Assembly: GCA_012837735.1 (NCBI GenBank)
Contig: DUQP01000031.1
Coordinates: forward strand, 16,581 to 80,580
DNA length: 64,000 nucleotides
Direction of reading: 5' to 3'
DNA from: Bacillota bacterium
Lineage (GTDB): Bacteria > Bacillota > Sulfobacillia > UBA3575 > DUQP01
Shown here piece after piece: positions 10,135-64,000 of this stretch. The notes under the pieces were generated by a model. The model did no database searches. It was not told the origin of the DNA and saw only the letters and a program-made list of their open reading frames with translations. Both the position numbers and the translations under genes were made by a program. Each line of letters begins with the position of its first letter. Position 1 is the stretch's first letter.

Positions 10135-11193
10135 ATGGAAAGATACATCCTGGCGTTCCTGCTCTCCCTGGCCATCTCCTACCTGGTGACGCCCCTGGTC
10201 AGGTGGGTGGCCCTGCGCTGCGGCGTGGTGGACAAGCCCGGCGAGCGCAGCGCCCATACAGAACCAAAACCTCATCTGGGCGGAATCGCCATTTTCCTGG
10301 CCTTTACGGCCGCTGTGCTGTGGGCAGTGGGGGCGGGTACCCCGGCCATGCAGGGCCTCTTGTTGGGCGGCACATTGATCATGGTCGTGGGATTGGTGGA
10401 TGATCTATTTGGGTTGTCGCCGCGGCTCAAGCTCCTGGGGCAGGTGGCGGCGGCCATGGTTTTGGTCTTATTCGGCGTGCAAGTGGAGTTCTTGACGAAC
10501 CCGTTTGGCGGGCTGATCTGGCTCGGCTGGTGGTCGATCCCGTTCACCCTTTTGTGGGTGGTGGCGGTCACAAATGTGATGAACCTGATTGACGGGCTGG
10601 ATGGCCTGGCGGCCGGGATTGCCTCCATCGCCGCTCTGACGTTGCTGGTGGTGGCGGTGCAAGACAAGCAGGCGGTCACCATTTTGCTGACGGTGGCCTT
10701 GACGGGAGCCACGCTCGGCTTTTTGCCGCACAACTTCAACCCGGCCAAGATCTTCATGGGCGACACCGGTTCGTTGTTCCTCGGCTACGCGCTGGCGGCC
10801 GTATCCGTGCAGGGGACGCTGAAAAGCGCCACCGCCATCGCCCTGGTGGTACCCATTTTGGCGCTCGGGTTGCCGATTTTCGATACATTCTTTGCCATTG
10901 TGCGCCGGTTGCTGAACGGTCAGCCGATCTCGCAGGCGGACCGCGGTCACCTGCATCACCGGTTGCTGGCCCTGGGCCTCAGCCAGCGCCAGACTGTATT
11001 GGTGATGTATCTGGTCAGTGCTTGGCTCGGCCTGAGTGCGATCATCATCACGCATTTTGCCGCCTGGACAGGCTTGTTGTTTAGCGGCGGCGCCTTGTTG
11101 CTGGTGGTCCTCGGGGCGCGGCGCTATGGTGTTCTGGGACCCGGTCCGGGGAAGGTATTTCGTTTCCATAATCATAAGCAGATCAATCAGTGA
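10135..11193 (+). CDS. tagO: UDP-GlcNAc:undecaprenyl-phosphate GlcNAc-1-phosphate transferase (TagO/WecA, GT4 MraY family)
   Basis: MraY-like polytopic protein, motifs DDLxGL, NLIDGLDGLA, MGDTGS. Confidence 0.85.
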   Translation: MERYILAFLLSLAISYLVTPLVRWVALRCGVVDKPGERSAHTEPKPHLGGIAIFLAFTAAVLWAVGAGTPAMQGLLLGGTLIMVVGLVDDLFGLSPRLKLLGQVAAAMVLVLFGVQVEFLTNPFGGLIWLGWWSIPFTLLWVVAVTNVMNLIDGLDGLAAGIASIAALTLLVVAVQDKQAVTILLTVALTGATLGFLPHNFNPAKIFMGDTGSLFLGYALAAVSVQGTLKSATAIALVVPILALGLPIFDTFFAIVRRLLNGQPISQADRGHLHHRLLALGLSQRQTVLVMYLVSAWLGLSAIIITHFAAWTGLLFSGGALLLVVLGARRYGVLGPGPGKVFRFHNHKQINQ

Positions 11194-11252
11194 TGGCAGC
11201 GATGTGAAGCGCCCAACGGGCGCTTTTTGCCTTGTGTAAGGGGGTTATTGCC

Positions 11253-12425
11253 ATGTCTTGGAGAGTGCTGACGGTCTTCGGGGTGCGGCCGGAGGCAATC
11301 AAAATGGCCCCGGTGGTACTGGCGTTGCAGCGGGATCAAGATAATTTTATCACGCGCGTGGCTGTCACGGCGCAGCATCGCGAGATGCTGGACCAGGTTC
11401 TGGCCTGTTTCGGCATTGTGCCGGACTATGATCTCAATATCATGCAACCGCAACAATCGCTCACTGAGATCACGGTGCGCGCCCTGGCCGGCCTGGAGGG
11501 CGTCTTGCAGGCGGAACAGCCCGACCTGGTGTTGGTGCATGGTGATACCTCCACCACATTTGCGGCTGCCCTGGCCGCCTTCTATCAACAGGTGCGGATC
11601 GGGCACGTGGAGGCCGGTCTGCGCACGGGCGATAAATATGCGCCGTTTCCGGAGGAGATGAACCGGCGGCTGACGGGCGCGCTCTGTGATTTGCATTTCG
11701 CTCCCACCCAGACCGCCAAGACGAACCTGCGCCGCGAGGGCGTGCCGCCGGGGCAGATTTATGTGACTGGTAACACGGCCATCGATGCTTTGTTCCAGGT
11801 GGCGCGACCGGATTACCGGTTCCAGGAGCAGACGCTGGCCGGTTTGCCGTTTGACCGCTGCCGGGTGATTCTGGTCGATGCCCACCGGCGGGAGAACTTA
11901 GGCCGGCCAATGGTAGAGATTTGCCGGGCAGTGGCCGCTTTGCCAGCCATGGCACCCGATGTCCGGGTGGTGTTTTCAGTCCACCGCAACCCGCAGGTGA
12001 ACGAAGTGGCGCACCGGTACCTGGCCGGACGGGAGCGGATTCACTTGCTGGCCCCATTGGAGTATCCGGAGTGGGCAAATTTGATGGCCCGGGCCCATAT
12101 CATTTTAACCGATTCCGGCGGCATCCAGGAGGAAGCGCCAGCGCTTGGCACGCCGGTCCTGCTGTTGCGGGAGACGACGGAAAGGCCGGAGGCGATCAGC
12201 GCGGGTACGGTGCAATTGGTGGGGACAGACTACCGGGTGATCACGGCAGCGGTGCAGCGTTTGTTGACAGACGAAGTTGCTTATCGCCGCATGGCCGGTG
12301 CTGTCAACCCTTACGGCGATGGCCGGGCGGCGGAGCGGATCGTTGCCGCCCTGCACTATGAAATGGGGTTGCGCCCCACCCGGCCGCGGCCGTTTCGGGC
12401 AATAGTGCCGCAAGCCGCAAAGTAA
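11253..12425 (+). CDS. mnaA: UDP-N-acetylglucosamine 2-epimerase (non-hydrolysing)
   Basis: N-terminus VLTVFGVRPEAIKMAP, HGDTSTT and GGIQEE WecB/MnaA motifs; RBS AAGGGGG before ATG 11253. Confidence 0.9.
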   Translation: MSWRVLTVFGVRPEAIKMAPVVLALQRDQDNFITRVAVTAQHREMLDQVLACFGIVPDYDLNIMQPQQSLTEITVRALAGLEGVLQAEQPDLVLVHGDTSTTFAAALAAFYQQVRIGHVEAGLRTGDKYAPFPEEMNRRLTGALCDLHFAPTQTAKTNLRREGVPPGQIYVTGNTAIDALFQVARPDYRFQEQTLAGLPFDRCRVILVDAHRRENLGRPMVEICRAVAALPAMAPDVRVVFSVHRNPQVNEVAHRYLAGRERIHLLAPLEYPEWANLMARAHIILTDSGGIQEEAPALGTPVLLLRETTERPEAISAGTVQLVGTDYRVITAAVQRLLTDEVAYRRMAGAVNPYGDGRAAERIVAALHYEMGLRPTRPRPFRAIVPQAAK

Positions 12426-23088: not shown

Positions 23089-23137
23089 TGTCCCCCCGGC
23101 ATATAAATAACCAACTTTGTATCCGGGGGGGCCACAC

Positions 23138-23389
23138 GTGAAGGACTACATCTGGGAACGGGTCCTGGAGGTGAGCAATCATATCGTAACCCATGGCGCC
23201 ACCGTACGAGACGCGGCCAGAGTATTTGATGTCAGCAAAAGCACAGTCCACAAAGATGTCACGGAACGGCTGCCCAGGATGAACCCGGCGCTGGCCAAGG
23301 AAGTGAAAGCGGTATTGGAGCGCAACAAGGCGGAACGCCATCTGCGGGGCGGGGAAGCCACCCGTCGCAAGTACAAGGGGGATGGCTAG
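23138..23389 (+). CDS. spoIIID: stage III sporulation protein D, DNA-binding regulator
   Basis: VSKSTVHKDVTERLPRMNPALAKEV...RHLRGGEATRRKYKG matches the SpoIIID HTH signature; GTG 23138 after GGGGGGG. Confidence 0.9.
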   Translation: MKDYIWERVLEVSNHIVTHGATVRDAARVFDVSKSTVHKDVTERLPRMNPALAKEVKAVLERNKAERHLRGGEATRRKYKGDG

Positions 23390-26311: not shown

Positions 26312-26767
26312 TTGGCCATGGTTTGGGTAGCGGTGGGCATTTGCCTTTGTTTGAGCCTGTTGGCTTTGGCCGGCGGCGGTCGTCAGCCGGAGCCGAAAAC
26401 AATCCGGGTAGTGTTACTGGTGCATGAACAGGCAAATGCCCTCGAAGGATTAGTGCGGACAGTGGGTAGGGTAGTGGGATACCTGGCCCCTCCTGGCCGG
26501 GAGCCGCGCCTGACGGTCGTTGACCTCGGTTCGGCGGATGACACAGGCCAGGTTTTGGAGCGCTTAAGCGCCATGTATGGGTTTTTGGATTGGCGTGTAG
26601 TCCCGCTGACGGAGGCAGTAAGGAGCTGGCCGGAGAGCCGCCGGGAGCAGATTTACCTGCTCGACGCCCGCGGCCAACGGGATGTCCGCCCCTTGGCGCG
26701 CGTCGTCTGCCGGCGTTTCCTGGGTGACCAGCTGGACAACTCCCTTGGGACGGAAGGCACTGGCTAA
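26312..26767 (+). CDS. hypothetical protein with signal/TM segment and a truncated GT2-like N-terminal segment
   Basis: IRVVLLVHEQANALEGLV...LTVVDLGSADDTGQVLERL resembles the first two beta strands and DGS region of GT-A glycosyltransferases, but the protein is only 151 aa. Confidence 0.45.
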   Translation: MAMVWVAVGICLCLSLLALAGGGRQPEPKTIRVVLLVHEQANALEGLVRTVGRVVGYLAPPGREPRLTVVDLGSADDTGQVLERLSAMYGFLDWRVVPLTEAVRSWPESRREQIYLLDARGQRDVRPLARVVCRRFLGDQLDNSLGTEGTG

Positions 26768-30602: not shown

Positions 30603-30622
30603 TTATGTGGGGAGTGAAGCCG

Positions 30623-31750
30623 ATGGGAACGGGTGTGCTGCTACTGGAGGGCGGGTCGGCCTCTGGTGAGGTGGACTCCACATTGCAGGCGCTGCGGCGA
30701 GCGATTGCCATGGATACCCTGATAAATTGGTTGACGGTACCGGGTACGCAGGTGGTTCTGGCCAGCGGTAATCGGCAGCTACTACAGGCGGCGGAAAAAT
30801 TGGGGGCCGGCAGGTACGATACCGGGGGCGGGCCGTTCAGGCTGTTGGATACGCTGCGCGCGGTGCTGCAAGAGCAGAAATGGCAAAGGGTCCTGTGCAT
30901 GGGCGGCGCCGCGGCCCCATTGGCCACCCGGCAGGATTTGACGGAAATTCTGGGCATGTTGCAGGCCGCACCGGAACCGGCTGTGTTGATGAACAACCCG
31001 CTCTCAGCGGATATCGTCGGCTTTTCGCCCACCAGTTGCCTGGCGGGGATCCAAGCGGCCGGTTGTGACAACGACCTGGCTTTTCAACTTTGTCATATCG
31101 GATTACGCCGGGTGCTGCTGCCCCCGGAACCGCGCTTGACCTTCGATCTCGATACCCCGAGCGATGCTCTGCTGTTGCAGTGGTTGGTCGAGCGCGGGCA
31201 GCCGGTCGGGGAACGGACGAGACAGGCCTTAGCTGGCCTGCCCTGGGATGGCTGGCGGCTGCAGGCGGCGGTGGATGTTTTGGCCCGCCCGGGGTGTGAA
31301 GTGGCTTTGCTGGGCCGGGTTGGGCCAGGGGTGGTGAGTGAGATTAACCAGCGTCTCCAGTGCCGGTTACGGGTTTTTTCGGAAGAACGGGGCATGAAGG
31401 CCCTGGGGCGACTGGCGTCCCGGTCGGTGACGTCTCTGCTTGGCCATTATTACCAGGCGGTGGGGGGAGCGGAGTTTTTCCGTGCCCTGGGGCAGGTGGC
31501 GGATGTGGCTTTTTTCGATACCCGGGTATTGTTGGCCCATTTGGGATGCTACGTTGAGGCAGAACAGCGCTTTTGTTCCGACCTGGGCTGGTGGCGGGAA
31601 ATCACCCATCCGGGGCTGCGGGAGTTCACGCGGCTTGCTTGGCAAACGGAGGTGCCGGTCGTTCTGGGGGGACATTCACTGGTGTCCGGCGGTCTCCGTC
31701 TGTTGGTGGCCACACTGCCGGCCGGGCGGGAAAGGAATTCGCCCGAATAA
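30623..31750 (+). CDS. hypothetical protein: N-terminal MobA/CofC/DUF2064-like nucleotidyltransferase fold plus about 190-aa C-terminal domain of unknown function
   Basis: pattern ...DTLINW...VVLASGN...VLCMGGAAAPLATRQDL...FDLDTPSDA (the terminal D-x-D-T-P-x-D is typical of MobA-like NTP transferases); GGGGAG 7 nt before ATG 30623. Confidence 0.5.
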   Translation: MGTGVLLLEGGSASGEVDSTLQALRRAIAMDTLINWLTVPGTQVVLASGNRQLLQAAEKLGAGRYDTGGGPFRLLDTLRAVLQEQKWQRVLCMGGAAAPLATRQDLTEILGMLQAAPEPAVLMNNPLSADIVGFSPTSCLAGIQAAGCDNDLAFQLCHIGLRRVLLPPEPRLTFDLDTPSDALLLQWLVERGQPVGERTRQALAGLPWDGWRLQAAVDVLARPGCEVALLGRVGPGVVSEINQRLQCRLRVFSEERGMKALGRLASRSVTSLLGHYYQAVGGAEFFRALGQVADVAFFDTRVLLAHLGCYVEAEQRFCSDLGWWREITHPGLREFTRLAWQTEVPVVLGGHSLVSGGLRLLVATLPAGRERNSPE

Positions 31751-32362: not shown

Positions 32363-32911
32363 ATGAAAAATGACCGACAAAGCGGCCGTCGCAGCCGTGG
32401 CCTGCCCACCAGGGCGTTGGCAGAGGCCGGCGTGATGCTGGCGCTGTCCACTTTTTTGAGTTTCATCAAGATTTGGGAGTCACCCCAGGGTGGAGCTGTC
32501 ACCCTCGGCAGCATGATTCCGGTTTTGGTATTTGCATTGCGCTGGGGTGTGCGGCCGGGGTTTCTGGTCGGTGCCCTGCATGGTGTGATCCAATTCCTCG
32601 TGGCCCCATTTTTCTTCCATCCCATCCAGGTATTGCTTGATTATCCGATCGGGTTTGGAATGCTGGGATTGGCCGGCGCTTACCGACGCTATCCGGCCCT
32701 GGGGGTCATCATAGCGGTGGTCGGGCGCCTGGCGGCCCATGTGTTGGCGGGGGTGGTCTTTTTTACCTCTTTTGCGCCTGAGGGCGTTAACCCCTGGATT
32801 TATTCCACCATCTATAACGGCACATTCCTGTTGCCGGAGCTGGCCATCAGTCTGGTGGTGGTGTTCGTACTGGGTTTGCTGCCGGCGCTGCGCCGGATTG
32901 ATGCGCTGTAA
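32363..32911 (+). CDS. thiT: ECF-transporter S component, ThiT/YuaJ-like (thiamine)
   Basis: 182 aa, 6 TM; QGGAVTLGSMIPVLVFALRWGVRPG, HPIQVLLDY, RLAAHVLAGVVFFTSFAPEGVNPWIYSTIYNGTF closely parallel B. subtilis YuaJ as recalled from memory; followed by a thiamine pyrophosphokinase gene. Confidence 0.65.
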   Translation: MKNDRQSGRRSRGLPTRALAEAGVMLALSTFLSFIKIWESPQGGAVTLGSMIPVLVFALRWGVRPGFLVGALHGVIQFLVAPFFFHPIQVLLDYPIGFGMLGLAGAYRRYPALGVIIAVVGRLAAHVLAGVVFFTSFAPEGVNPWIYSTIYNGTFLLPELAISLVVVFVLGLLPALRRIDAL

Positions 32912-32926
32912 GCTGGGGGGATAGTA

Positions 32927-33598
32927 ATGGACCTGCACGGGAAAAGGGTCGTGGTTTGTGTCAATGGCCATTGGGAGCATTTAGTGCAGACGGGCTGGCA
33001 GCGCCAGCCGGATGATTTTGTGATTGCGGCCGACGGCGGCTATTATTTGGCCAAAGCCCTCGGTTTGGAATTGGATTTGCTGATCGGGGATTTTGATTCA
33101 TTGCCGGCGGAATTGGTCCGGGAGTTGGCCCAGACCGTCACAGTGATCCGGTTTCCGGTCGCAAAGGACATGACTGACCTGGAATTGGCCATGGATTGGG
33201 CATTGGCCCGCGGTTGCCGGGAGATTTTGGTGCTGGGCGGTCTGGGCAAGCGCTTGGACCACACTCTGGGCGGGATCTGGTTATTGCCGCGCTGGGTGCG
33301 CGCCGGTGTGCCGGTGATGTTCTGGGATCCCTCTTGCACGGTGACCGCGGCCGAGAAAGAAGTCGTCTTGACCGGGCAAGCAGGTGACATACTTTCCCTT
33401 TTTCCCGTCACCCAGCTGGTGGAGGGAATAGAAACCCACGGGTTGAAGTATCCGCTGGTGAACGGTCGTTTGCGGTGGGGTGAAACCCTCGGTGTGAGCA
33501 ATGAGTTTCAGCAAGCCACCGTGCGCGTGACCTGGCGGCGGGGAATCTTGCTGGCAGTGCACTGGCACCTGGAAAGGGGAGCACAAAGCAGTGATTAA
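32927..33598 (+). CDS. thiN: thiamine pyrophosphokinase (thiamine diphosphokinase)
   Basis: TPK motifs [22 protein letters not shown], plus C-terminal thiamine-binding domain. Confidence 0.8.
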
Positions 33599-37391: not shown

Positions 37392-38117
37392 ATGAAGAGG
37401 TTTCTGGTTGGCTTGCTGATCTTGGTGGTGGTGTTGGGGGTCGGGACTGAACTTTTCCTGCCCAGAGCGGTGGAGCGCGGGGTTACGGCCGCTTTGGCCA
37501 GGGCGACCGGTGAGCAGGACTTGGCCGTCTTTTTGGAAAGCCACCCGGTCTTGCGGATGATGTTAGGCGAGTTCAGTACGGTGACGGTGGAAAATACTGA
37601 TGTGTCTGTGGATGGCCTAGCTTTTCAGACTGTCGCCACCACATTGCAGCAGGTGCGCATGAACTTGGAGCAGCTCTTGCAGGAAAGACAAGTCTCGGCA
37701 GGCCGGGGCCGCCTGCAGACTGTTTTCCGGCTCAGCGCCACCGATATTGAAAACCACCTCCTGGTGCGGATCCCGAACCTGCAAGCCGCCGAGGCGGCGC
37801 TGCTGGACGACAGGATATTGGTTGATGGCACATTTGCGTTAGAGGGAGGGCGACAGCTGCATTTCAAGACCGTCAACAGTCTGCAACAGCCCGATGAAAC
37901 TCATTTGGCTTTGACGGTGGAACAGATGTGGCTGAACGACGTGGCGATTGCTCCGGAACTCGCTCGTGACCTGGTGGAGTTCTTCGCTCCGGAACCACTG
38001 GCAATCGATTTTGGCGCTTTCCCCGTGCCCCTGAAAATCACGGACGTGCAAATGGATGCCAGGGCGATCGTAATCACCGCCCAGGAGCAGGTAGGGCAAC
38101 AGGAGGATGTTAGGTGA
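37392..38117 (+). CDS. DUF2993/LmeA-like envelope protein
   Basis: N-terminal TM then a repeated beta-rich organisation similar to LmeA-family proteins; GGAGGGGGG 7 nt before ATG 37392. Confidence 0.55.
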   Translation: MKRFLVGLLILVVVLGVGTELFLPRAVERGVTAALARATGEQDLAVFLESHPVLRMMLGEFSTVTVENTDVSVDGLAFQTVATTLQQVRMNLEQLLQERQVSAGRGRLQTVFRLSATDIENHLLVRIPNLQAAEAALLDDRILVDGTFALEGGRQLHFKTVNSLQQPDETHLALTVEQMWLNDVAIAPELARDLVEFFAPEPLAIDFGAFPVPLKITDVQMDARAIVITAQEQVGQQEDVR

Positions 38118-39265
38118 TAAAAAAAGCATTGCCGGTGTGTTGGTTTGTGATCATTCTCCTGACATTTTCCAGCATTGCCATCGCTGCGCCGGAGGTCCCA
38201 TCCGGTGACTATGTGGAAGAGGTCCAGCCGGGGGTATCCCTGCGCGGTCGCGTGATGGCCATCATCTCGGAAACAGAAGAAGACTTTGGCTATGGTATGG
38301 TGATGAGGACCCAGGTGGCGCGGGTGCGCCTTGCCTCCGGGGCTTGGAGAGGCCAGGTCTTAGAAATCGAGAACGTGCTGGGTGGCAATCCGGCTTACGA
38401 TATCCACCTGGCGCCCGGCGATGACGTCCTGCTTTATACCATTATTGAAAACGACCAGATCGTAGAGGCCCATGTGGAGTCACTGGCCAGGGACCGGGAG
38501 CTGCTTTACCTGGTTTTGTTGTTTGTAATCCTGTTAATCGTGGTCGGTGGCTGGAAAGGAGTCAAGGCCAGCTTAACGCTTGCTTTCACAGTGCTCGTCG
38601 TGTTCAAGGTGCTGTTGCCGCTTGTTTTGCAGGGCTATCATCCCATCCTCCTCACTATCCTGGTGGCGGCCGTAACAACCGCCGTTACCCTGTTGGCGGT
38701 CGGGGGCGTAAACCGCAAGACCGTGACTGCGATTACGGGCACCCTGGGCGGGGTAGTGGTGGCGGGGTTGCTCGGGGTCTTGTTCGGCTCAATGGGCAAG
38801 CTGACCGGATTGTCGGGGGAAGAGGCGCAGATGCTGATGTTTATCCCGCAAGGGATAGAATTCGATTTCCGCGGCCTTTTGTTTGCCGGCATGATCATCG
38901 GGGCTCTGGGTGCGGTGATGGATGTGGCGATGTCGATCGCCTCGGCTTTGGAGGAGATTAAGCAGGCGAATCCCACGACCTCCGGGCGCTCTTTATGGCG
39001 GGCCGGGATGAACGTGGGCCGTGATATCATGGGCACCATGTCAAACACCTTGATCCTGGCCTATACGGGCGGTTCTCTCCCGCTATTGCTCCTTTTCCTG
39101 GCTTATGATACGCCATTGGTCAAGATTGTCAATTTGGACCTGATCGCTACTGAGATCATCCGTGCCGTGGCCGGCAGCACGGGCCTGGTGGCGGCAATTC
39201 CGATCACGGCGCTTGTCGGCGCGGGCATTTTGCCATCACAACGCCATGCAAAAGTACGGAACTGA
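38114..39265 (+). CDS. YibE/F-family integral membrane protein
   Basis: signal/TM, soluble N-domain, then multi-TM C-terminal half typical of YibE/F (pfam07907). Confidence 0.6.
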   Translation: MIKKALPVCWFVIILLTFSSIAIAAPEVPSGDYVEEVQPGVSLRGRVMAIISETEEDFGYGMVMRTQVARVRLASGAWRGQVLEIENVLGGNPAYDIHLAPGDDVLLYTIIENDQIVEAHVESLARDRELLYLVLLFVILLIVVGGWKGVKASLTLAFTVLVVFKVLLPLVLQGYHPILLTILVAAVTTAVTLLAVGGVNRKTVTAITGTLGGVVVAGLLGVLFGSMGKLTGLSGEEAQMLMFIPQGIEFDFRGLLFAGMIIGALGAVMDVAMSIASALEEIKQANPTTSGRSLWRAGMNVGRDIMGTMSNTLILAYTGGSLPLLLLFLAYDTPLVKIVNLDLIATEIIRAVAGSTGLVAAIPITALVGAGILPSQRHAKVRN

Positions 39266-39299: not shown

Positions 39300-39320
39300 G
39301 AGTAGTGTATAATGGTGAGG
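39300..39320 (+). promoter_or_regulatory. candidate promoter with extended -10 TGTATAAT for the downstream envelope operon
   Basis: TG-TATAAT at 39306-39313; poor -35; about 65 nt upstream of RBS GGGAGG and ATG 39387. Confidence 0.35.
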
Positions 39321-39386
39321 GAGAGGAATGTGGGCCTACCCGGTCCGGCGACTGGACGGGGTATGCCGGTGTGCGGGAGGTTGTTT

Positions 39387-41459
39387 ATGGGTCGTGGCCA
39401 GACCATCATGCTGTGGCTGATGATCGCCGTTGCCCTGGGGGCGGCCGGCGTTACGTTTGTTATGCGGGAATGCGCCCTGGGCGACAGCGCACAAATTGAA
39501 CTGGCATTGGACTATGATCACACCGCGCGCTATGTCAGGCAGCAGGGAATGGATCTGGATACATTTCTGTCCGGTATGCGTGAGGCGGGCATCACCACCG
39601 CTGTGGTGGGTGAGATGACTTTGCGGGAATTGGCGGAGGAGGGCCGGGTGGCCCTGATTGATGGCAGTAGTTACCGGGACATTGCCAGGATGTTTCCTGC
39701 TGGCAGTGTTCCCGCGCTGCATAGCGGCAACCTGGTGGTTTTGGTGCCGGAGCAGGAACTGTGGGTTGAATTGCTGCCGGCTTTGCGTACGCGTTTGGGG
39801 CTGGAGCGGGTGACACCGCTGGCGGACCAGGCCATTTTGATCGCCAGGCAACCGGATGAGCGGGAAGAAGAAGAGGCGGAAATCTTGCGCCGCACCCCTT
39901 GGACGGACGGCGAGCTGCTCGATCTCGGTCTGGGCCTGGATAGAAAGTCCCTGCGGATCGCGCAAGCGCATGGTCTGGCGGTCCTGGCTTACGTGGCCGA
40001 TTATCCGGGCGCCGGCCCGGAGGCGGTGACGGATCTGGCCAACCGCTTGCAAGGGGTGGCCTCCGTTTCCGGAGTGATGTTTTCAGGCGACTCCGTGCTT
40101 GGTGGGGCGGCAATTCGGGCCGAATTGGCGCAATTGCTTACAGACCGCGGTTGGTATTTAGCCTTTATGGAACATAAAGAGCAGCGGGGTCTGGACGAAT
40201 TGGCCAATGCCGTGTCTTATCGGGCCGTCAAGCTGCATCATGCTTATCGTGGCGAACCTTTGGATTACGTGCGGGCCGCCGTCCGGGAACGGCATGTGCG
40301 CATGCTTTATTTCCGGCCAATTGTCTCCGGGGCCGGGGGGCGTGACTTGCTGACATATAACCAGGAATATGTGACGAGGATCGTAAACGCCCTGACTACC
40401 TGGGGATATCGGACCGGGCAGGCAGAACCCTTGCCCCCGTTCACTGTCCCGAAATGGGCCCAGACGCTCCTGATCGGGGGAGTGGCGGGCGCCTGGATAT
40501 TGTTATGGAACAGATGGTGGCAAAAGGACTGGCATCCGGTCATGTTCATGGTGGTCCTGGCGGGGGTATACCTGGGCGGTTACGCTTTGCTGAGTAGCCC
40601 ATTGGCCAATCAAATGCGGGAACTGGCTGCCTGGTGCGCGGCGGTCGGATTCCCCGTGCTGGGCCTGTCCGGTTTGGTGGCCAGGCAAAAGTTGCTTGGG
40701 CGCCAATTCGGGTTTTGGGCACCGGGCCTTGCCCGGGCAATGGGTGATTTGCTTTTGGTAAGCCTGGTGACGGTCAGCGGCGGCCTGTTATTGAACGCCC
40801 TTTTGGGTGACAGCCGCTATGTTCTGCAGCTGGATCAGTTCCGCGGTGTAAAGCTGGCTCTGGCACTGCCCCCAGTTGTGATGGCGGGTTTGTTCTTTTT
40901 GCAGACCGATATCAGTCCGGCCGGTGGACAAGCGGTGGCCCGCAGCCCCTGGCAGCGGCTGTCCCGGTTTGGGAAAGACCTGTGGTCACTCCCCTTAACG
41001 TATGGCTTAGTGGTGGGGGCGGCGGCCGCTTTGCTGATCGCGGCTGTGATTTTGTTGCGGGCGGGCAATTTCCCCTTGATTCCCATTCCGGATCTGGAGG
41101 TGGCGATGCGGGATCTGCTCAGCCAGGCCCTGGTGGTGCGCCCGCGCACAAAGGAGTTTCTGTTTGGCCACCCGGCCCTGTTGCTGGCCGCTTACTTGGG
41201 GTTGTTCTACCGCGGCCGCTACCAGGTCATTTTTTTGGGGCTGGCGGCCATCGGACAAGCCTCGGTGGCCAATACGTTTTCCCATATCCACACCCCGCTC
41301 GTGTTCAGCCTGTGGCGGACATTTAACGGGCTGTGGCTGGGGGCAGCGTTGGGGGTGGCCGCAGTGGGGGTCATGATCGGTCTTTATTATTGCGGTCGAA
41401 ATTGGCGGACCAGCCTGGCTGGCTATATTTGCGATGACGGCGGGGGTGGGCGGGAATGA
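39387..41459 (+). CDS. large polytopic membrane protein, paralog A (possibly DUF5693-like); uncharacterised
   Basis: N-terminal TM, about 330-aa extracytoplasmic domain, about 10-TM C-terminal domain with conserved motif VRPRTKEFLFGHPALLLAAYLG. Confidence 0.7.
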   Translation: MGRGQTIMLWLMIAVALGAAGVTFVMRECALGDSAQIELALDYDHTARYVRQQGMDLDTFLSGMREAGITTAVVGEMTLRELAEEGRVALIDGSSYRDIARMFPAGSVPALHSGNLVVLVPEQELWVELLPALRTRLGLERVTPLADQAILIARQPDEREEEEAEILRRTPWTDGELLDLGLGLDRKSLRIAQAHGLAVLAYVADYPGAGPEAVTDLANRLQGVASVSGVMFSGDSVLGGAAIRAELAQLLTDRGWYLAFMEHKEQRGLDELANAVSYRAVKLHHAYRGEPLDYVRAAVRERHVRMLYFRPIVSGAGGRDLLTYNQEYVTRIVNALTTWGYRTGQAEPLPPFTVPKWAQTLLIGGVAGAWILLWNRWWQKDWHPVMFMVVLAGVYLGGYALLSSPLANQMRELAAWCAAVGFPVLGLSGLVARQKLLGRQFGFWAPGLARAMGDLLLVSLVTVSGGLLLNALLGDSRYVLQLDQFRGVKLALALPPVVMAGLFFLQTDISPAGGQAVARSPWQRLSRFGKDLWSLPLTYGLVVGAAAALLIAAVILLRAGNFPLIPIPDLEVAMRDLLSQALVVRPRTKEFLFGHPALLLAAYLGLFYRGRYQVIFLGLAAIGQASVANTFSHIHTPLVFSLWRTFNGLWLGAALGVAAVGVMIGLYYCGRNWRTSLAGYICDDGGGGRE

Positions 41460-43453
41460 AGGGCATAAACCAACCCATACAAATCGGTCTGGTATTAATC
41501 CTGGTTGTTTCCCTTTTAGCGGGCCTGTGGGTGTTCTATGGCCGGGCGGTGGACGAAGGGAGTGCCGACAGCGTCGCTCTGGTGGTTGACCTGAATGAAA
41601 TATCAGTCCTGGCCCGGGCTGCCGGGCAGGATCCCGCCAGCATGTTGGCCAGTATCAAGGAGACGGGGGTAACGGCGGTGGCAGTGCCGGAAAAGACCCC
41701 GGCCGCCTTGCATGCGGAAGGGCGCCTGTCACTGTTCAGCGGTGAAGAGCTGCTGGTGTTGCTGCGCTTGACGGACCGACTTGGTTGGCCGGCGGATCTT
41801 GATCCGGCCCGCATCAAACCGGAATACACCTATTTGCATGTGACTGAGGATGAGTTGATAAAGCAGGTGCGGGATGCCCTGGTCAGGCGCGTGGAAGAGG
41901 TTCAGGAGTACCAGCTGGGGGGCGGAACGCTGTTTGTAGTGGCGGCCGCCAAAGAAGACGTCGCTGCGCTTGGATTGGGCATTTGGCCGGTGGACGTGGC
42001 AATGGTAAATGGGCTCGGATTGGCCGTCATTCCCCGCTTGCAGAACCTGCCGGATGTTTCCGCCCAGGAGGTCAGTCAGGCCTTTAGCGGTTTTCAGGCC
42101 GGGACGGTGGTGTTTGCCGGCAGTGAAGTGCTGGGTTATCCGCATCTAATTGGCCACACCGCCAAGGTGATGCGCGCGCAAGGGCTACACTTGGGTTTAA
42201 TCGAGAATTGGAGCCAGACCGGCTTTTTGGATCAGGCTGGTGGGCGCCAACTATATGATGAGCTGGGGGAAGAGGTCGTCCGGGTTTATAGCATTGAAGA
42301 AAGCAAGCAAAAGGCGCGCGCACCGGACGACGTGGTTGATATCTGGGCCAGGGCGGTGCGGGAGCGCAAAATCCGCCTGCTTTATTTGCATCCGTTCTTC
42401 CATACGGCAGATCCGGTCGCCGATACATTAAACAGCTTTCGTGAGCTGTCAGAGAGGCTCGCTGCGGAAGGATTCGTGGCCGGTAATCCTGCTCCCTTGC
42501 CGGTGGGGGAAAGCCACCGCGGGGCGGATCTCCTGTTGGCCTGGGGAGTGGCGGCAGCGGGGCTATTGTTGTTGCAACTGCTTTGCCCATTGGCGCCTGG
42601 ACCTAGGTTGATTTTCAGCGGGTTGGCTTTCCTGGCGGTGACTGGTTTGCTGTTCCAGGGCCCATTGGGCAGACAGCTTTTGGCGTTGGGGGCGGCGATC
42701 GTCTTTCCGGCTTTGGCCGTTTTGTCCCAGGTTCAGACCTGGCCCATCAAGGCCATCTGGGGTGGGTTCACTGCCCATGCCGCCCGGGGTGTGGTCGCCC
42801 TAATTTCCGCCAGTGCCATCTCTTTGCTGGGGGGACTGCTCGTGGCCGGGATCTTGACGCAACCCGACTACTTGAATGGCTGGCAGGTATTCCGTGGCGT
42901 GAAAATTTCGCTCCTTTTGCCGCCGCTGTTGGTCCTGGTGGCTGTGCTGACAGCGCCGCTGGGACCCGGGGAAGCGCCTAGCCTGCGGGCGGCTTGGACG
43001 CGCTTGCGCGGCTATCTGATGCGCCCGTTGGCGCTGGGGGAAGTCTTTGTACTCATGCTGATCCTGCTGGCCGCCTTTTTATATGTTGCGCGCAGTGGCA
43101 CGATTTTGCCCGTGGCGGGTTTCGAATTGGAGGCGCGCTCTTTTTTGGAGAGCGTTTTCGGGGTCCGACCGCGCACGAAGGAGTTTTTGATCGGACATCC
43201 CGCCCTGTTTTTGGCAGCTGTGGCGGCCAGCCTCCGGCGTGTCGACTTAGCCAGCCTGTTAGCAGTAGCTGGTGCCATTGGCCAGGTATCGATCGTGAAC
43301 TCGTTTGAACATTTGTTCACCCCTGTGGTGCTGTCATTGCTGAGAGGGGCCAATGGCCTCACCCTCGGTTTGGTGGTCGGTTTGGCGGTCACCGCTGTGC
43401 TGTGGCCGTTCATCAGGACGGCCCGCCCGGCGCCATGGGAGAAGGAGAGTTGA
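41456..43453 (+). CDS. large polytopic membrane protein, paralog B (tandem duplicate of the upstream gene)
   Basis: same architecture and conserved motif VRPRTKEFLIGHPALFLAAVAA plus FRGVKISLLLPP / FRGVKLALALPP; ATGA overlap with paralog A. Confidence 0.7.
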   Translation: MKGINQPIQIGLVLILVVSLLAGLWVFYGRAVDEGSADSVALVVDLNEISVLARAAGQDPASMLASIKETGVTAVAVPEKTPAALHAEGRLSLFSGEELLVLLRLTDRLGWPADLDPARIKPEYTYLHVTEDELIKQVRDALVRRVEEVQEYQLGGGTLFVVAAAKEDVAALGLGIWPVDVAMVNGLGLAVIPRLQNLPDVSAQEVSQAFSGFQAGTVVFAGSEVLGYPHLIGHTAKVMRAQGLHLGLIENWSQTGFLDQAGGRQLYDELGEEVVRVYSIEESKQKARAPDDVVDIWARAVRERKIRLLYLHPFFHTADPVADTLNSFRELSERLAAEGFVAGNPAPLPVGESHRGADLLLAWGVAAAGLLLLQLLCPLAPGPRLIFSGLAFLAVTGLLFQGPLGRQLLALGAAIVFPALAVLSQVQTWPIKAIWGGFTAHAARGVVALISASAISLLGGLLVAGILTQPDYLNGWQVFRGVKISLLLPPLLVLVAVLTAPLGPGEAPSLRAAWTRLRGYLMRPLALGEVFVLMLILLAAFLYVARSGTILPVAGFELEARSFLESVFGVRPRTKEFLIGHPALFLAAVAASLRRVDLASLLAVAGAIGQVSIVNSFEHLFTPVVLSLLRGANGLTLGLVVGLAVTAVLWPFIRTARPAPWEKES

Positions 43454-43454
43454 G

Positions 43455-44549
43455 ATGGCACGGGTTCTGGTTTCGGGATATTTTGGGTTTGGCAATGTGG
43501 GTGACGAGGCTTTGCTGGCCGCTATGGTGGGAGCCTGGCGCCGCCGGATACCCGAGCTGGAGATCACCGTCACATCGGCTGATCCCGCCCATACAGCCAG
43601 GCAACACGGGGTGATTGCGATTGGTCGCACAGATCTGCCGGCCATCTTGCGGGCTCTGGCGAAAACCGATTTGCTGGTCAGCGGTGGTGGCAGCCTGTTG
43701 CAGGATGTCACTGGTCGCTGGACGATTCCCTATTATCTCGGTATCGTCTGTTTGGCATTGGCGCGTCGTTGCCCGGTGTTGATGTATGCGCAGGGGATCG
43801 GCCCTGTCACCGGCCGCCTGGGCAAAGCTCTCATCCGGACGGTCGTGAACCGGATGGATTGGCTGACGGTGCGGGATCCCGGTTCGGCTGCCCTGCTGCG
43901 CCAGCTTGGGGTGCATGCGCCTCCTCTGGAGGTGACTGCCGATGCCGTTTTCACCCTGCAGCCTACTGACAGGGGACGAGGCCGGGCTTTTTTATGGCAG
44001 GAAGTGCCGGTGGGGGGAAAGCCGGTGATTGGTGTGTCGGTGCGAGAATGGGAGGCCGTTTCACCGCGGACGCTTGCGAAAGCCCTGGATGACTTGGTGG
44101 CGGCCACGGGGGCGGTGTTATTGTTCATCCCCATGCAATACCCGGCGGACTATGAATTCTCCCGCCTGGTCGCCTCCCATATGTTTAACCCGGCGCGGGT
44201 GATGAGCCAGCGGCTGGGCACCCAAGACCTGCTCGATCTGTGCAGTGGGTTGGATATGATGGTGGGAATGCGGTTGCATTCCTTGATCTTTGCCGCCCTC
44301 GGTTCAGTGGTGCCGGTTGGCATCAGCTATGACCCGAAAATAGATGCTTTCCTGGCTTCATTGGGCCTGGCACCGGCCGCTATGGCCAACAATCTGCAGC
44401 CGCAAGAATTTGTCGCGCAGGCATGGCAGATATGGCAAAGGCGAGGGGAGCTGGTCGGGCAGTTGGCCAGGCGCGTAGGCGAGCTGCGCAAGCGGGCGGA
44501 GTGGAACGCCGATTTATTGGTTTCCCTGTTGCCGGGTGAGGGGAGATGA
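43455..44549 (+). CDS. csaB: polysaccharide pyruvyl transferase CsaB
   Basis: N-terminus MARVLVSGYFGFGNVGDEALL...LVSGGGSLLQD typical of CsaB/PS pyruvyl transferases; TGAgATG junction with upstream gene. Confidence 0.85.
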   Translation: MARVLVSGYFGFGNVGDEALLAAMVGAWRRRIPELEITVTSADPAHTARQHGVIAIGRTDLPAILRALAKTDLLVSGGGSLLQDVTGRWTIPYYLGIVCLALARRCPVLMYAQGIGPVTGRLGKALIRTVVNRMDWLTVRDPGSAALLRQLGVHAPPLEVTADAVFTLQPTDRGRGRAFLWQEVPVGGKPVIGVSVREWEAVSPRTLAKALDDLVAATGAVLLFIPMQYPADYEFSRLVASHMFNPARVMSQRLGTQDLLDLCSGLDMMVGMRLHSLIFAALGSVVPVGISYDPKIDAFLASLGLAPAAMANNLQPQEFVAQAWQIWQRRGELVGQLARRVGELRKRAEWNADLLVSLLPGEGR

Positions 44550-45292
44550 ATGATTTGGCCAGGAGGCGGGTCGATCTCCTCGGTGTGCCGGTGGATGCCG
44601 TCACGATGGCGGAGGCATTGCATTGGGCGCTGGAACAATTGCCCACAGGAGAGACCAACCTCATTTTTACTCCCAACCCGGAGATAGTGTATCGGGCGTG
44701 GCATGATCCGGTCTTTTACCAAGCCCTCACCAGCGCCGACCTATTGGTGCCGGATGGGATCGGGGTGGTATGGGCGGCGGCCCGCCTGGGCCAGCCGGTA
44801 CCGGAACGGGTGCCCGGTTACGATTTGATGATTCATCTACTTGCTGCGTTGGCGAGGCGCCACGGCAGGGTGTTTTTCCTGGGCGCCAGGCCGGAGGTGG
44901 TGCAGGCTGCCGCCCAGGTAGCGTCCCGGCGCTGGCCAGGCCTGGTGGTGACAGGTTATCACCACGGCTACTTCCAACCCGGGCAAGAGGAGCAAGCGGT
45001 GCTCCAGAAAATCCGCGCTGCCGCCCCCGATTTATTGTTGGTGGCGCTGGGGGCCGGCAAACAGGAAGAATGGCTGGCCTTTCATCGGGCGGAATTGCAG
45101 GTGCCGCTGGCCATCGCGGTCGGGGGCAGCTTTGATGTCCTGGCAGGGATCACTCAGCGGGCCCCCACCTGGATGCAACGCCTGCATTTGGAATGGTTGT
45201 ATCGGTTGTTGCGGCAGCCCAGCCGGTGGCGCCGGATGCTGGCTTTACCCCGGTTTGCCTGGACCATCATCAAGGCTGGGGCAAAAAGATAG
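44546..45292 (+). CDS. tagA: WecG/TagA/CpsF-family glycosyltransferase (N-acetylmannosaminyltransferase)
   Basis: GVPVDAVTMAEAL...IFTPNPEIV...LVPDGIGVVWAA...FFLGARPEV GT26 motifs; ATGA overlap with csaB. Confidence 0.85.
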   Translation: MNDLARRRVDLLGVPVDAVTMAEALHWALEQLPTGETNLIFTPNPEIVYRAWHDPVFYQALTSADLLVPDGIGVVWAAARLGQPVPERVPGYDLMIHLLAALARRHGRVFFLGARPEVVQAAAQVASRRWPGLVVTGYHHGYFQPGQEEQAVLQKIRAAAPDLLLVALGAGKQEEWLAFHRAELQVPLAIAVGGSFDVLAGITQRAPTWMQRLHLEWLYRLLRQPSRWRRMLALPRFAWTIIKAGAKR

Positions 45293-45316: not shown

Positions 45317-46144
45317 ATGTCTGCCGAGGAACTAACACTTACAGCAAGAGCGCAGCGGATTCGCCGCCATATCATCCGCATGACGGCGGCGGCCGGCTCT
45401 GGACATCCGGGAGGGTCGCTGTCATGCGTTGAGATTTTGGTGAACTTGTATTTTCGCATCATGCGCATCGATCCGGCCCGGCCAGATTGGCCTGATCGGG
45501 ACCGCTTCGTGCTCTCCAAGGGGCACGCCGCGCCAGCCCTTTACGCCACGCTGGCGGAGCGGGGCTTCTTCCCCACCACACAGTTGACCACCCTGCGCAA
45601 GTGGGGCAGCATGCTGCAGGGCCATCCGGATGCCAAACGCACGCCGGGCGTGGAGGCCTCAACGGGTTCGCTGGGCCAGGGTCTGTCGATGGCCGTTGGT
45701 ATGGCCCTGGCCGGGCGCGTGGACAAAAAGGACTTCCGCGTTTTTGCCCTCCTGGGAGACGGTGAGAGCGAAGAAGGACAGATTTGGGAAGCGGCGATGG
45801 CCGGCGCCCATTACCGGCTCAGTAATTTAGTGGCCTATTTGGACTTTAACCGCCTGCAGGTCGATGGGCGGATTGAGGATGTGATGTCGCCCACCCCGCT
45901 GGCCGATCGGTGGCGGGCATTCGGTTGGGCTGTGCATGAGATCGACGGACACGATTTGACGGCCCTGGCGCAGGTGACAGAACGGGCTTTGGCGGAGGCG
46001 CAAGGACCGCAGCTGATCCTGGCCCATACCAAGAAGGGAAAAGGGGTTTCATTCATGGAAGATGCCATCGATTGGCACGGGGTAGCCCCGAACGCCGAGC
46101 AAGCCCGGCAAGCGTTGCGGGAATTGGGGGGTGAGGACGAATGA
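45317..46144 (+). CDS. transketolase, N-terminal (TPP-binding) subunit
   Basis: SGHPGGSLSCVEIL, GDGESEEGQIWEA motifs; split-type transketolase. Confidence 0.9.
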   Translation: MSAEELTLTARAQRIRRHIIRMTAAAGSGHPGGSLSCVEILVNLYFRIMRIDPARPDWPDRDRFVLSKGHAAPALYATLAERGFFPTTQLTTLRKWGSMLQGHPDAKRTPGVEASTGSLGQGLSMAVGMALAGRVDKKDFRVFALLGDGESEEGQIWEAAMAGAHYRLSNLVAYLDFNRLQVDGRIEDVMSPTPLADRWRAFGWAVHEIDGHDLTALAQVTERALAEAQGPQLILAHTKKGKGVSFMEDAIDWHGVAPNAEQARQALRELGGEDE

Positions 46145-47082
46145 GCGAACCCATGGCTACCAGAGATGCTTATGGCAAGGCTTTGGCGGAATTGGGAGCA
46201 CAAAACCCGAATATCGTGGTGTTGGATGCGGACTTGTCCAAATCCACAAAAACCGCCCTGTTCGGCGAGCGGTTCCCGGAACGCTTTTTTAACATGGGGA
46301 TTGCGGAACAAAATATGATTGGCGTGGCAGCCGGTTTGGCGGCCGCCGGCAAGATTCCTTTTGCCAGCACATTCGCCGTGTTCGCCCCGGGCCGGGTATT
46401 CGATCAGATCCGCAATTCCATTGCCTATGCGGATTTGAACGTGAAGATCGCCGCGTCCCACGCCGGGCTGACCGTCGGCGCAGACGGTGCTTCGCACCAG
46501 GCGGTGGAGGATATCGCTTTGGTTCGCGCCATCCCCCATATGACGGTGATCGTCCCCGCCGATGGCGAGCAGGCCCGGCAGGCGGTGTTTGCCGCCGCCC
46601 AGCACCACGGGCCCGTTTATTTGCGATTGGGGCGTCCCAAGGTGCCGGTGGTCTATGATCAGGAACACCGCTTCCAAATCGGCCGGGCGGACCAATTACG
46701 GACGGGAGACGATGTAGCGATCATCGCCTGCGGCCTGATGGTGTCGCTGGCCTTGCAGGCCGCTGACCAGTTGGCGGCAGAAGGGATAGCGGCCAGCGTG
46801 ATAAACATGGCCACCATCAAGCCGCTGGACATCGGGGCGGTCGTGCGGGCGGCCAAAACCTGTGGGGCGGTGGTGACGGCGGAGGAACACAATATCATTG
46901 GCGGCTTGGGCAGCGCCGTGGCCGAGGCGCTGGGCGAATTCTACCCCGTGCCGCTCCGCCGGGTGGGGATTCAGGACCAGTTTGGGCAATCCGGTGAACC
47001 GGATGAGTTGTTGGCGCACTACGGCATGACCGCCGAACACATTGCCATGGCGGCCAGAGAGGCGGTGGCTAGAAAAGTGTAA
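46141..47082 (+). CDS. transketolase, C-terminal (pyrimidine-binding) subunit
   Basis: FFNMGIAEQNMIGVAAGLA...; ATGA overlap with the N-terminal subunit. Confidence 0.9.
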   Translation: MSEPMATRDAYGKALAELGAQNPNIVVLDADLSKSTKTALFGERFPERFFNMGIAEQNMIGVAAGLAAAGKIPFASTFAVFAPGRVFDQIRNSIAYADLNVKIAASHAGLTVGADGASHQAVEDIALVRAIPHMTVIVPADGEQARQAVFAAAQHHGPVYLRLGRPKVPVVYDQEHRFQIGRADQLRTGDDVAIIACGLMVSLALQAADQLAAEGIAASVINMATIKPLDIGAVVRAAKTCGAVVTAEEHNIIGGLGSAVAEALGEFYPVPLRRVGIQDQFGQSGEPDELLAHYGMTAEHIAMAAREAVARKV

Positions 47083-47128: not shown

Positions 47129-47168
47129 GAGAGGGGGCGGCAGCCTCCTCTCATTTTTTACCTTTTTT
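47129..47168 (+). terminator. second, tandem terminator hairpin
   Basis: GAGAGGGGGC-ggca-GCCTCCTCTC followed by ATTTTTTACCTTTTTT. Confidence 0.55.
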
Positions 47169-62484: not shown

Positions 62485-62501
62485 ACATGACAGGCGGTAA
62501 A

Positions 62502-62535
62502 GGACAGCCTTTTTCAAGGCTGTCCCTCCTTTTTC
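62502..62535 (+). terminator. rho-independent terminator
   Basis: GGACAGCC-tttttcaa-GGCTGTCC then CTCCTTTTT. Confidence 0.7.
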
Positions 62536-62608
62536 AATGTGCAAAAATCTGCTGGCCGCAACTGCTCAAACCAGAAACGATTTTTGCTTTCACTGGATCG
62601 GTTATTTA

Positions 62609-62872
62609 TCACTTAAAGAATCCGCCAAATAAAGGGATACTTTCCATGCCGGATGCTTTTGAACTCGATGTATTGGGTAGAATTAGGATTGCAAGTGCTG
62701 CAACCGCAGCAATAGCCCATCCTTTATAAGCTTTTTTCTTTGACATAGATCTCTTGGTCTTCTTTCCTTGATTTATACGCTGTTCCATTTCAAAAACAAC
62801 CTTATCGCTCATGACTGGTTTTTCATACTTTTTCTTAAATAATCTTAAATTTTTATCATCATAATCAGACAA
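62609..62872 (-). CDS. small single-TM membrane protein; putative (possibly 3'-truncated) anti-sigma factor cotranscribed with the sigma fragment
   Basis: starts right after the sigma ORF stop: TGA-AAGGAGG-tccttgtta-TTG (ORF track's ATG 62899 lies inside the sigma ORF); charged N-domain, TM AIAAVAALAILIL, very short ectodomain; region GC about 33%. Confidence 0.45.
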   Translation of the reverse strand: MSDYDDKNLRLFKKKYEKPVMSDKVVFEMEQRINQGKKTKRSMSKKKAYKGWAIAAVAALAILILPNTSSSKASGMESIPLFGGFFK

Positions 62873-62888
62873 TAACAAGGACCTCCTT

Positions 62889-63260: not shown

Positions 63261-63375
63261 TCAGCCAGCCAGCCGGGAACCATGGCGGGGGCAATTGCGC
63301 TGATGGCGACGCAGGCCAGCGCCAACTCCGCGACAGCGGAAACATGGCTGTCACGGCCTATTTCAGCAAATCTCT

Positions 63376-63561: not shown

Positions 63562-63564
63562 TTC

Positions 63565-63837: not shown

Positions 63838-64000
63838 CCTTCCGTAGGCCTTTCTGTTGGAAATTATGTCCTTATTATAGTCGTTTGAGCGACGTACTTT
63901 AAAGAACTGTAAGACACGCATCCCTGTTTTCCGACGGTGAAACCCAGGTTTGAAGTTTTTCTTTTTTATTCAAGGAGATTTTCCAAGCGGCGGATTCGCC

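Follow-up and report, generated by a model that had tools for sequence, protein, structure and literature searches.

The stretch of DNA analysed here, called the window, comprises 64,000 nucleotides of a Bacillota bacterium of the Sulfobacillia (GCA_012837735.1, contig DUQP01000031.1, positions 16,581 to 80,580 of the forward strand), and it encodes two consecutive polytopic membrane proteins, paralogs A and B, followed by csaB, the gene of a ketal-pyruvyltransferase, and by a glycosyltransferase gene of the WecG/TagA/CpsF family (Table 1). Both paralogs belong to the Pfam family DUF5693 (PF18949), a name that an earlier note on this sequence had tentatively put forward and that the profile search bears out: the matches are full-length (profile positions 2-605 of 609) and score 437.8 bits for A and 501.2 bits for B, the cutoff being 29. 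Moreover, the halves of each protein, searched separately in Pfam, match DUF5693 alone. The comparison across genomes described below gives good support to DUF5693 as a conserved membrane partner of CsaB, and its involvement in CsaB-dependent assembly of a wall glycopolymer is highly probable.

A and B share 29% identity over 664 columns (BLASTP E 6e-45), in agreement with their earlier description as tandem paralogs, and the motifs VRPRTKEFLxGHPAL and FRGVK(I/L)xLxLPP are present in both copies. A second pair of soluble-domain motifs that had been presented as corresponding (LHHAYRGEPLDYV / LYLHPFFHTADPV) occupies positions that are not homologous in the pairwise alignment, and that correspondence is abandoned here. 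The proposed coupling to csaB and tagA is visible in the gene junctions. ATGA overlaps join A to B (41456-41459) and csaB to the tagA-family gene (44546-44549), while the ATG of csaB at 43455 follows the stop codon of B (43451-43453) with a gap of 1 nt and is preceded by a GGAG-type ribosome-binding site; also, the YibE/F gene starts in a GTGA overlap with the stop of the LmeA-like gene. For A, the start at 39387 is preferable to the ATG at 39312 because the sequence GGGAGG (39375-39380) precedes it by 6 nt. All the genes from the LmeA-like gene to the split transketolase are co-directional.

Regarding the identity of the partners, csaB passes the NCBIfam CsaB equivalog model TIGR03609 (276.9 bits against a cutoff of 213.1). 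The tagA-family product passes the superfamily model TIGR00696 (179 bits, cutoff 69) and does not reach the TarA equivalog model NF041710 (189.4 bits against 350); it is therefore assigned as a GT26 member, probably the N-acetylmannosamine (ManNAc) transferase TagA, with its exact specificity taken from the context. A tagO-like gene and mnaA are found elsewhere in the window, as the earlier note had indicated, adjoining each other beside the ATP synthase operon 28 kb upstream of the module, and the tagO-like gene is a candidate for the initiating enzyme.

Table 1. Features of the DUF5693-csaB module and related genes in the window
Feature	Position	Strand	Evidence or remark
TagO/WecA/MraY-family polyprenyl-phosphate sugar-phosphate transferase	10135..11193	+	PF00953, E 3e-45
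mnaA, UDP-GlcNAc 2-epimerase, UDP-ManNAc supply	11232..12425	+	PF02350, E 2e-116
LmeA-like (PF11209 family) membrane-anchored protein	37392..38117	+	ATG 37392 preferred over GTG 37359
YibE/F-family membrane protein	38114..39265	+	Pfam PF07907, E 2e-88
DUF5693 paralog A, 690 aa, diverged upstream copy	39387..41459	+	PF18949, E 9e-131
DUF5693 paralog B, 665 aa, canonical copy	41456..43453	+	PF18949, E 6e-150
csaB, ketal-pyruvyltransferase	43455..44549	+	TIGR03609 above cutoff; PF04230
WecG/TagA/CpsF-family (GT26) glycosyltransferase	44546..45292	+	PF03808, E 1e-66; TIGR00696
Split transketolase (N-terminal part 45317-46144, C-terminal part 46141-47082)	45317..47082	+	PF00456
Terminator-like hairpin and T-run	47129..47152	+	10-bp stem, 7 G-C pairs, then ATTTTTT

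A search of 1.84 billion representatives gave 3,446 clusters at 50% identity that match the DUF5693 profile, 2,114 of them at E<=1e-30, and the family members are nearly all 630-720 residues long and matched across their full length. Relatives are found in Clostridia, in Thermaerobacter and Caldinitratiruptor, in relatives of Desulfotomaculum, in Negativicutes (Selenomonas, Mitsuokella, Megamonas, Anaerovibrio and Phascolarctobacterium), in Armatimonadota, and in Margulisbacteria and Saganbacteria. The closest relatives of B share just 34-39% identity with it, so that the window represents a poorly sampled lineage; the exact sequence of B was found in two Logan assemblies. The contigs of relatives come from a search seeded with an 8-sequence alignment, and when homologs were sought again through a word index, starting from a broader alignment, the 36 proteins already known were obtained and none extra. 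Eight of the longest members, inspected for domain fusions, carry no additional Pfam domain, the members of the clusters are named only 'DUF5693 family protein' or 'hypothetical protein', and no NCBIfam model covers DUF5693. The family is catalogued in Pfam though unstudied, so it is not itself new. A and B share its length and architecture with no family-level difference, and what the window adds to the family at large is a tandem arrangement in which the upstream copy, A, has diverged.

The neighborhoods of DUF5693 relatives were compared in 80 loci (labelled L001 and so on). csaB lies directly 3' of DUF5693 in 64 of them, which span Bacillota (Clostridia, Negativicutes, Thermaerobacter), Armatimonadota and Margulisbacteria/Saganbacteria, and in 5 further loci csaB is elsewhere in the locus or cut by the contig end. 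The adjacency is present in 41 of the 50 loci with a secA-prfB context and in 23 of the 30 outside it, being independent of the surrounding genes. Moreover, csaB starts at a median of -1 nt from the stop codon of DUF5693, and 39 of 52 measured gaps are of 20 nt or less. Linkage to csaB in other genomes had been named beforehand as the decisive test of the coupling, and it holds in several phyla and genomic contexts. The gene order of the window is the same in the cultured Caldinitratiruptor microaerophilus and in L084.

Some of these loci place the pair among other genes of glycan assembly. In a Desulfotomaculum sp. (L009, 3095-20081), a dedicated wall-glycan cluster contains, in this order, tagA, an LCP ligase, an acyltransferase-3, a 669-aa FAD_oxidored protein (PF12831), DUF5693, csaB, a NAGPA phosphodiester glycosidase that carries a Cu_amine_oxidN1 domain and, further on, tagO. 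Two other loci (L023 and L047) contain unannotated open reading frames (ORFs) whose sizes and order match those of this cluster. Flippase genes of the MurJ/Wzx family are found beside the DUF5693-csaB pair in L050, L057, L058, L061 and L067. In L061 (9974-15560) a MurJ-family gene is placed between DUF5693 and csaB, and in L067 (9953-16158) DUF5693 is followed by genes for a Wzy_C protein, a GT4 glycosyltransferase and a MurJ/Wzx-family flippase, csaB being 6 kb beyond.

A third conserved member of the module, unmentioned in the earlier note, is the LmeA-like gene, whose family lies directly 5' of DUF5693 in 40 of the 80 loci according to a family hidden Markov model. The Pfam family LmeA (PF11209), of phospholipid-binding proteins, is matched by 18 of 20 family members, with a best E of 3e-23, and precomputed PF11209 assignments are available for the orthologs in L084 (6875-7579) and L086 (9257-9931). 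The protein of the window is too diverged for a direct Pfam LmeA match and is homologous to proteins that have one, with phmmer scores of 83-99 bits to the orthologs in L001, L002 and L010. In mycobacteria, the periplasmic LmeA sustains MptA, a mannosyltransferase that depends on polyprenol, together with the lipomannan that MptA produces (PMC7643837). This system is alike in the pairing of a lipid-binding helper with a polytopic glycan-elongating membrane enzyme (PMC7643837), although MptA is a GT-C enzyme, which DUF5693 is not, and the mycobacterial pair is not operon-coupled with a pyruvyltransferase.

The YibE/F gene of the window, on the other hand, is absent from the position 5' of DUF5693 in all the related loci and is probably window-specific, outside the conserved module. 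In 12 loci a second small signal-anchored family, of about 140-190 aa and with the motif PGSxxDPxVTxSYV, is encoded between the LmeA-like gene and DUF5693 (L001 7082-7537, L002 1135-1584, L010 7392-7847 and L081 7047-7775; also L020, L026, L030, L033, L036, L061, L062 and L079). This protein is missing from the window, where the YibE/F gene takes its position, and the family has no precomputed Pfam assignment in L081 or L084.

An AlphaFold2 model of B, built on an 18-sequence alignment, has a predicted local distance difference test (pLDDT) value of 85.7 and a predicted template modelling (pTM) score of 0.83, and a second family model reaches a pLDDT of 82.6. In the model of B, a first transmembrane (TM) helix at residues 5-36 is followed by an alpha/beta domain (39-340) and by nine more TM helices (355-655), with amphipathic helices at 510-522 and 555-568. 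The earlier estimate of about ten helices in the C-terminal block is thus lowered to nine, ten being the total for the whole protein. Seven strands of the soluble domain (39-45, 74-78, 190-195, 217-220, 245-250, 274-279 and 308-311) fit a 7-stranded barrel, within which a subdomain is inserted at about 91-170.

Conservation and loop charge were analyzed in 182 family members. The N terminus has a net charge of +1.7 and the segment that follows TM1 one of -0.8, and the subsequent loops have values of +1.3, +0.3, +1.8, +0.5, +1.9, +0.5, +1.9, -0.1 and +1.5, which corresponds to a range of +1.3 to +1.9 for the inside and of -0.8 to +0.5 for the outside. According to the positive-inside rule, this alternation would place both termini inside, and the barrel together with the conserved motifs FRGVK, RPRTKE and FxHxxTP outside, as the earlier note had supposed for the soluble domain and the Arg/His-rich site. 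At least 98% of the members share R571, P572, R573, K575, E576, G481, K483 and H619. Near-invariant polar residues map to the outer interface, namely R30, E34, K483 (FRGVK), R546, E557, R561, R571-P-R573-x-K575-E576, F617-x-H619-x-x-T-P, S627 and R630, their placement on the outer face being read from where they fall along the sequence in the predicted topology. The conserved residues of the bilayer's inner half are only Gly, Pro and Ala, none of them charged, and for this reason an interfacial enzyme fits better than an alternating-access transporter. Moreover, eight conserved basic residues are clustered outside, contrary to the positive-inside rule, which would point to a site that binds an anionic group, for instance a lipid-carrier pyrophosphate or the carboxylate of pyruvate. 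In beta/alpha barrels the active site is usually found at the C-terminal ends of the strands, and the conserved barrel residues D45, E79, R194, E250, Q260, R276, R304 and R307 are located at or near these ends.

The two paralogs differ with respect to these sites. The family invariants R30, G262, G481, K483, R546, E557, R561, R571-P-R573, K575, E576, H619 and R630 are present in A and B, and B retains every family-conserved residue. By contrast, A carries substitutions at conserved barrel sites (E34->L, R194->Y and R276->K) and keeps all the TM-face motifs; this asymmetry, like the LmeA-like partner, adds to what had been noticed before. Positions 250 and 260 are also altered in the upstream copies of some relatives. 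Tandem pairs are confined to the window and to its nearest relatives, which are L001 (Ca. Acetocimmeria), L002, L010, L063 (Thermaerobacter), L081 (Caldinitratiruptor) and L084, and in a neighbor-joining tree the upstream copies split from the downstream copies and single-copy orthologs, A forming a clade with the upstream copies of L001, L002, L010, L063 and L081. The most extreme case is the upstream copy of Caldinitratiruptor microaerophilus (AP025628.1; L081 7839-9989), where a 716-aa ORF is retained with most of the invariants lost, among them RPRTKE, FRGVK and H619; judging from its sequence, this copy is likely a pseudo-enzyme subunit. This pattern suggests that the genes duplicated long ago and that the barrel site then relaxed in one of the two subunits of a heteromer, and A and B would probably work as such a heteromer, formed by a canonical B and an A with a relaxed barrel.

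Concerning the fold, a profile of 18 members searched against all PDB sequences gives nothing below E 0.1, Foldseek of the full model against PDB gives no match with E<0.01, and the isolated TM and barrel halves of several members match only DUF5693 in Pfam at E<=10. The membrane domain resembles no solved fold convincingly, and the profile searches, consistent with what the earlier note had proposed, place the proteins in no characterised family unrelated to glycans. Several candidate families were considered. For Wzy_C/O-antigen ligase (PF04932, clan CL0499), the full proteins give no match at E<=0.01 and six isolated TM domains none at E<=10, in a search that detects the Wzy_C protein of L067; this clan includes WpaA/WpaB of Bacillus anthracis. 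Likewise, there is no fold similarity to the solved WaaL structure, the GT-C transmembrane fold is not found, and neither a profile nor a fold match links the proteins to MOP flippases (MurJ/Wzx). The likeness to Wzy polymerases and WaaL ligases that had been suggested is therefore retained only as a functional analogy. DUF5693 shares with them a polytopic architecture and conserved outer-face Arg/His residues (here R546, R561, R571, R573, K575, H619 and R630) and, by proposal, would act like them on glycans linked to undecaprenyl pyrophosphate (Und-PP) after flipping, but profile and fold similarity is absent and Wzy and WaaL lack the large N-proximal beta/alpha barrel.

Pyruvylated wall polymers serve as anchors for S-layers and, among diderm Terrabacteria, for the outer membrane. 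For the secondary cell-wall polymer (SCWP), TagO and TagA make Und-PP-GlcNAc-ManNAc, CsaB pyruvylates this lipid-linked disaccharide, and LCP enzymes attach wall polymers to MurNAc (PMC6030368). Polymerisation and ligation of the SCWP are called open questions by the authors of that study, as the earlier note had also stated, and the published model for B. anthracis gives the flipping step to a MOP-type protein (PMC6030368). The SCWP locus of Paenibacillus alvei (orf1-csaB-tagA-tagO) is similar to the module in its csaB-tagA core and in having an unnamed gene, orf1 (PAV_RS07430), directly upstream of csaB (PMC6030368). From the gene content of the window and its relatives we infer that the module assembles a lipid-linked wall glycopolymer and that its membrane component is non-canonical and uncharacterised.

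In the mechanism proposed here, TagO, TagA and CsaB would build Und-PP-GlcNAc-ManNAc(4,6-pyruvate) at the inner face and a MOP-type flippase would carry the pyruvylated unit across the membrane. At the outer face, the cationic ring of DUF5693 would bind the pyrophosphate of the unit, and possibly also its pyruvate carboxylate, while the barrel (D45, E79, R194, E250, R276, R304 and R307) would hold the growing pyruvylated chain. DUF5693 would then transfer the glycan, most likely by polymerising repeat units on the growing chain or, alternatively, by handing the unit to its acceptor. The LmeA-like protein could assist with the lipid-linked intermediate, by analogy with LmeA-MptA of mycobacteria. 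That DUF5693 is an outer-face transferase or polymerase for a lipid-linked pyruvylated glycan is a tentative reading, which we take as possible and somewhat short of probable. The broader proposition, that glycan polymerases or transferases of a new membrane class, unlike Wzy/WaaL, GT-C and SEDS in fold, assemble the SLH-recognised pyruvylated polymer throughout the Terrabacteria in concert with an LmeA-like lipid-handling protein, is rather unlikely.

A step after flipping is favored because flippase and LCP genes co-occur with DUF5693. The earlier note had left polymerisation, ligation and export as possible roles. Of these, export and ligation become less likely, since DUF5693 has canonical MOP flippases and an LCP ligase among its neighbors, and in one locus also a Wzy_C protein, and polymerisation is reached by elimination, given that some loci carry known families for the other steps next to DUF5693 and that polymerisation is the step most often without an assigned gene. 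Several points weigh against an outer-face transferase or polymerase. The main caution on the polymerase role is the Wzy_C gene that L067 has of its own; as this gene, a GT4 glycosyltransferase gene and a MOP flippase gene adjoin DUF5693, a canonical polymerase can coexist with it. In addition, DUF5693 has no sequence or fold likeness to a known glycan polymerase, ligase or GT-C enzyme, and the mechanism assumes a single pocket shared by the site in the barrel and the one at the membrane face. Also, four marine loci of Margulisbacteria type have RNase III 3' of DUF5693 and lack csaB in the locus. No SLH protein was found in the 64-kb window by a consensus-seeded jackhmmer search, and among 81 loci there was only one (L053), unconfirmed by Pfam, so SLH proteins are not neighbors as a rule. 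Finally, the literature searched contains no mention of DUF5693 or PF18949, and nothing relevant was found in it for a membrane protein upstream of csaB.

Among the alternatives, the one that survives best, although improbable, gives the catalytic role to the barrel. DUF5693 would have the wall polymer or peptidoglycan as its substrate, as a hydrolase, a deacetylase or a processing enzyme (for example in trimming, de-N-acetylation or chain-length control), with the TM block as an anchor and substrate guide. In the AlphaFold model, the barrel weakly resembles deacetylase-type barrels, the comparison being with the 7-stranded glycoside hydrolase/deacetylase barrels of CE4, YdjC, divergent polysaccharide deacetylases and LamB-YcsF. 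However, no barrel His reaches 85% conservation, so that the Asp-His-His metal site of CE4 (NodB) and YdjC deacetylases is absent, and no Pfam deacetylase or hydrolase match appears even at E<=10, nor a Foldseek match against PDB with E<0.01. Moreover, the strongest conservation of the family is in the TM-face motifs and not in the barrel, and the retention of these motifs in A while its barrel sites drift suggests that the TM-face site is the indispensable one.

A slightly less probable alternative is that DUF5693 is the dedicated flippase for the pyruvylated lipid-linked disaccharide made by CsaB, as a non-orthologous replacement of the Wzx-like CsaA. In B. anthracis, the gene upstream of csaB in the csaA-csaB operon encodes CsaA, a MOP-type, Wzx-like protein. 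DUF5693 occupies the corresponding place, directly upstream of csaB and translationally coupled to it, its ten TM helices and conserved basic residues would suit a flippase, a MOP-type protein has this step in the B. anthracis model cited above (PMC6030368), and in most loci no flippase gene lies next to the pair. Against this stand the loci with a MurJ/Wzx-family gene beside the pair and the lack of conserved charged residues in the inner half of the membrane, which fits an interfacial enzyme better than an alternating-access transporter.

The possibility that DUF5693 is a non-catalytic scaffold, which brings CsaB and its LmeA-like partner to the membrane or to places where the wall grows, is less probable again. 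Translational coupling with csaB would suggest a stoichiometric complex, the module is embedded among ftsEX, an M23/EnvC-like peptidase and ctpB, and the upstream paralog of Caldinitratiruptor has been retained despite the loss of nearly all the conserved residues. Nonetheless, more than 20 polar or charged residues are conserved at 98% or above across phyla, many of them basic and on the outer face, and such conservation is typical of a binding or catalytic site, which counts against a scaffold.

Very improbable is a TM domain that works as a PAP2-like phosphatase or phosphotransferase, recycling or using the undecaprenyl pyrophosphate from wall-polymer assembly. H619 is the sole invariant His, the signature KX6RP / PSGH / SRX5HX3D is absent, with L564 at the Lys position and P623 at the Asp position, and there is no Pfam PAP2 match. 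Equally improbable is a csaB adjacency that is merely inherited synteny of an old housekeeping cluster (secA-prfB ... ftsEX), with DUF5693 unrelated to pyruvylated glycans: the context common to 50 of the 80 loci and the prfB, DUF5693, RNase III order of the four marine loci would favor it, but the pair is intact in most loci outside that context, including the L009 cluster with tagA, LCP and tagO, stop/start overlaps are the rule, and the linkage spans several phyla.

The analysis newly documents the strength and breadth of the coupling to csaB, the LmeA-like third partner, an outward cationic site in a protein without a known membrane-enzyme fold, and an asymmetric paralog pair. Und-PP-GlcNAc-ManNAc(Pyr) has already been synthesised, and the gap in SCWP biosynthesis gains a candidate gene, residues to mutate and a defined substrate. 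If the broader, rather unlikely proposition is true, DUF5693 would belong to the core machinery that anchors S-layers in monoderms and that tethers the outer membrane, in the OmpM manner, in diderm Bacillota, Armatimonadota and Margulisbacteria; should it prove to be the polymerase or transferase, it would found a new class of enzymes and could be a target in pathogens with SLH anchoring. OmpM/SLH tethering attaches the outer membrane in diderm Terrabacteria (bioRxiv 10.1101/2021.05.31.446380), and DUF5693 may bear on this attachment.

At the 3' side of the module, the split transketolase is probably on the same transcript, and the hairpin downstream of it is likely the 3' end of the operon, this being a consensus match only, in a region where the total of terminator-like sites is not above the shuffled expectation. 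A tktN-tktC pair 3' of tagA is also present in at least 14 related loci (carriers include L002, L010, L020, L026, L030, L033, L036, L054, L062, L063, L072, L081 and L084), while the loci L055 and L079 are cut within or just past tktN. The enzyme may be a housekeeping one or may be tied to the glycan module.

In the wider window, nearly all the genes of positions 1-62000 are on the + strand and the GC skew is positive throughout, which places the window on the leading strand, and the presence of spoIID (21263-22237) and spoIIID (23117-23389) indicates an endospore-forming Bacillota lineage. The order hpf-...-secA-prfB-...-ftsE-ftsX-M23 peptidase-ctpB-uvrBAC is classic for Bacillota, and the DUF5693-csaB module is embedded within it. 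Genes for a thiT-type thiamine transporter and a thiamine pyrophosphokinase (32363-33598) lie between DUF5317 and secA; in L084 the gene for a MASE9/HD-domain protein precedes DUF5317. Rfam gives no thiamine pyrophosphate riboswitch or other family at gathering score anywhere in the window, structural RNAs and tRNAs are absent from it, and Pfam assigns no family at E<=0.001 to the ORFs 30605-31750 (381 aa) and 26312-26767 (151 aa). Finally, in the last part of the window (62500-64000) the GC content falls from about 0.59 to 0.47, the GC skew becomes negative and the ORFs are on the minus strand, one of them (62889-63170) resembling by eye region 4 of an extracytoplasmic function (ECF) sigma factor and another (62609-62899) a small membrane protein of anti-sigma type, so this part may be a foreign island.

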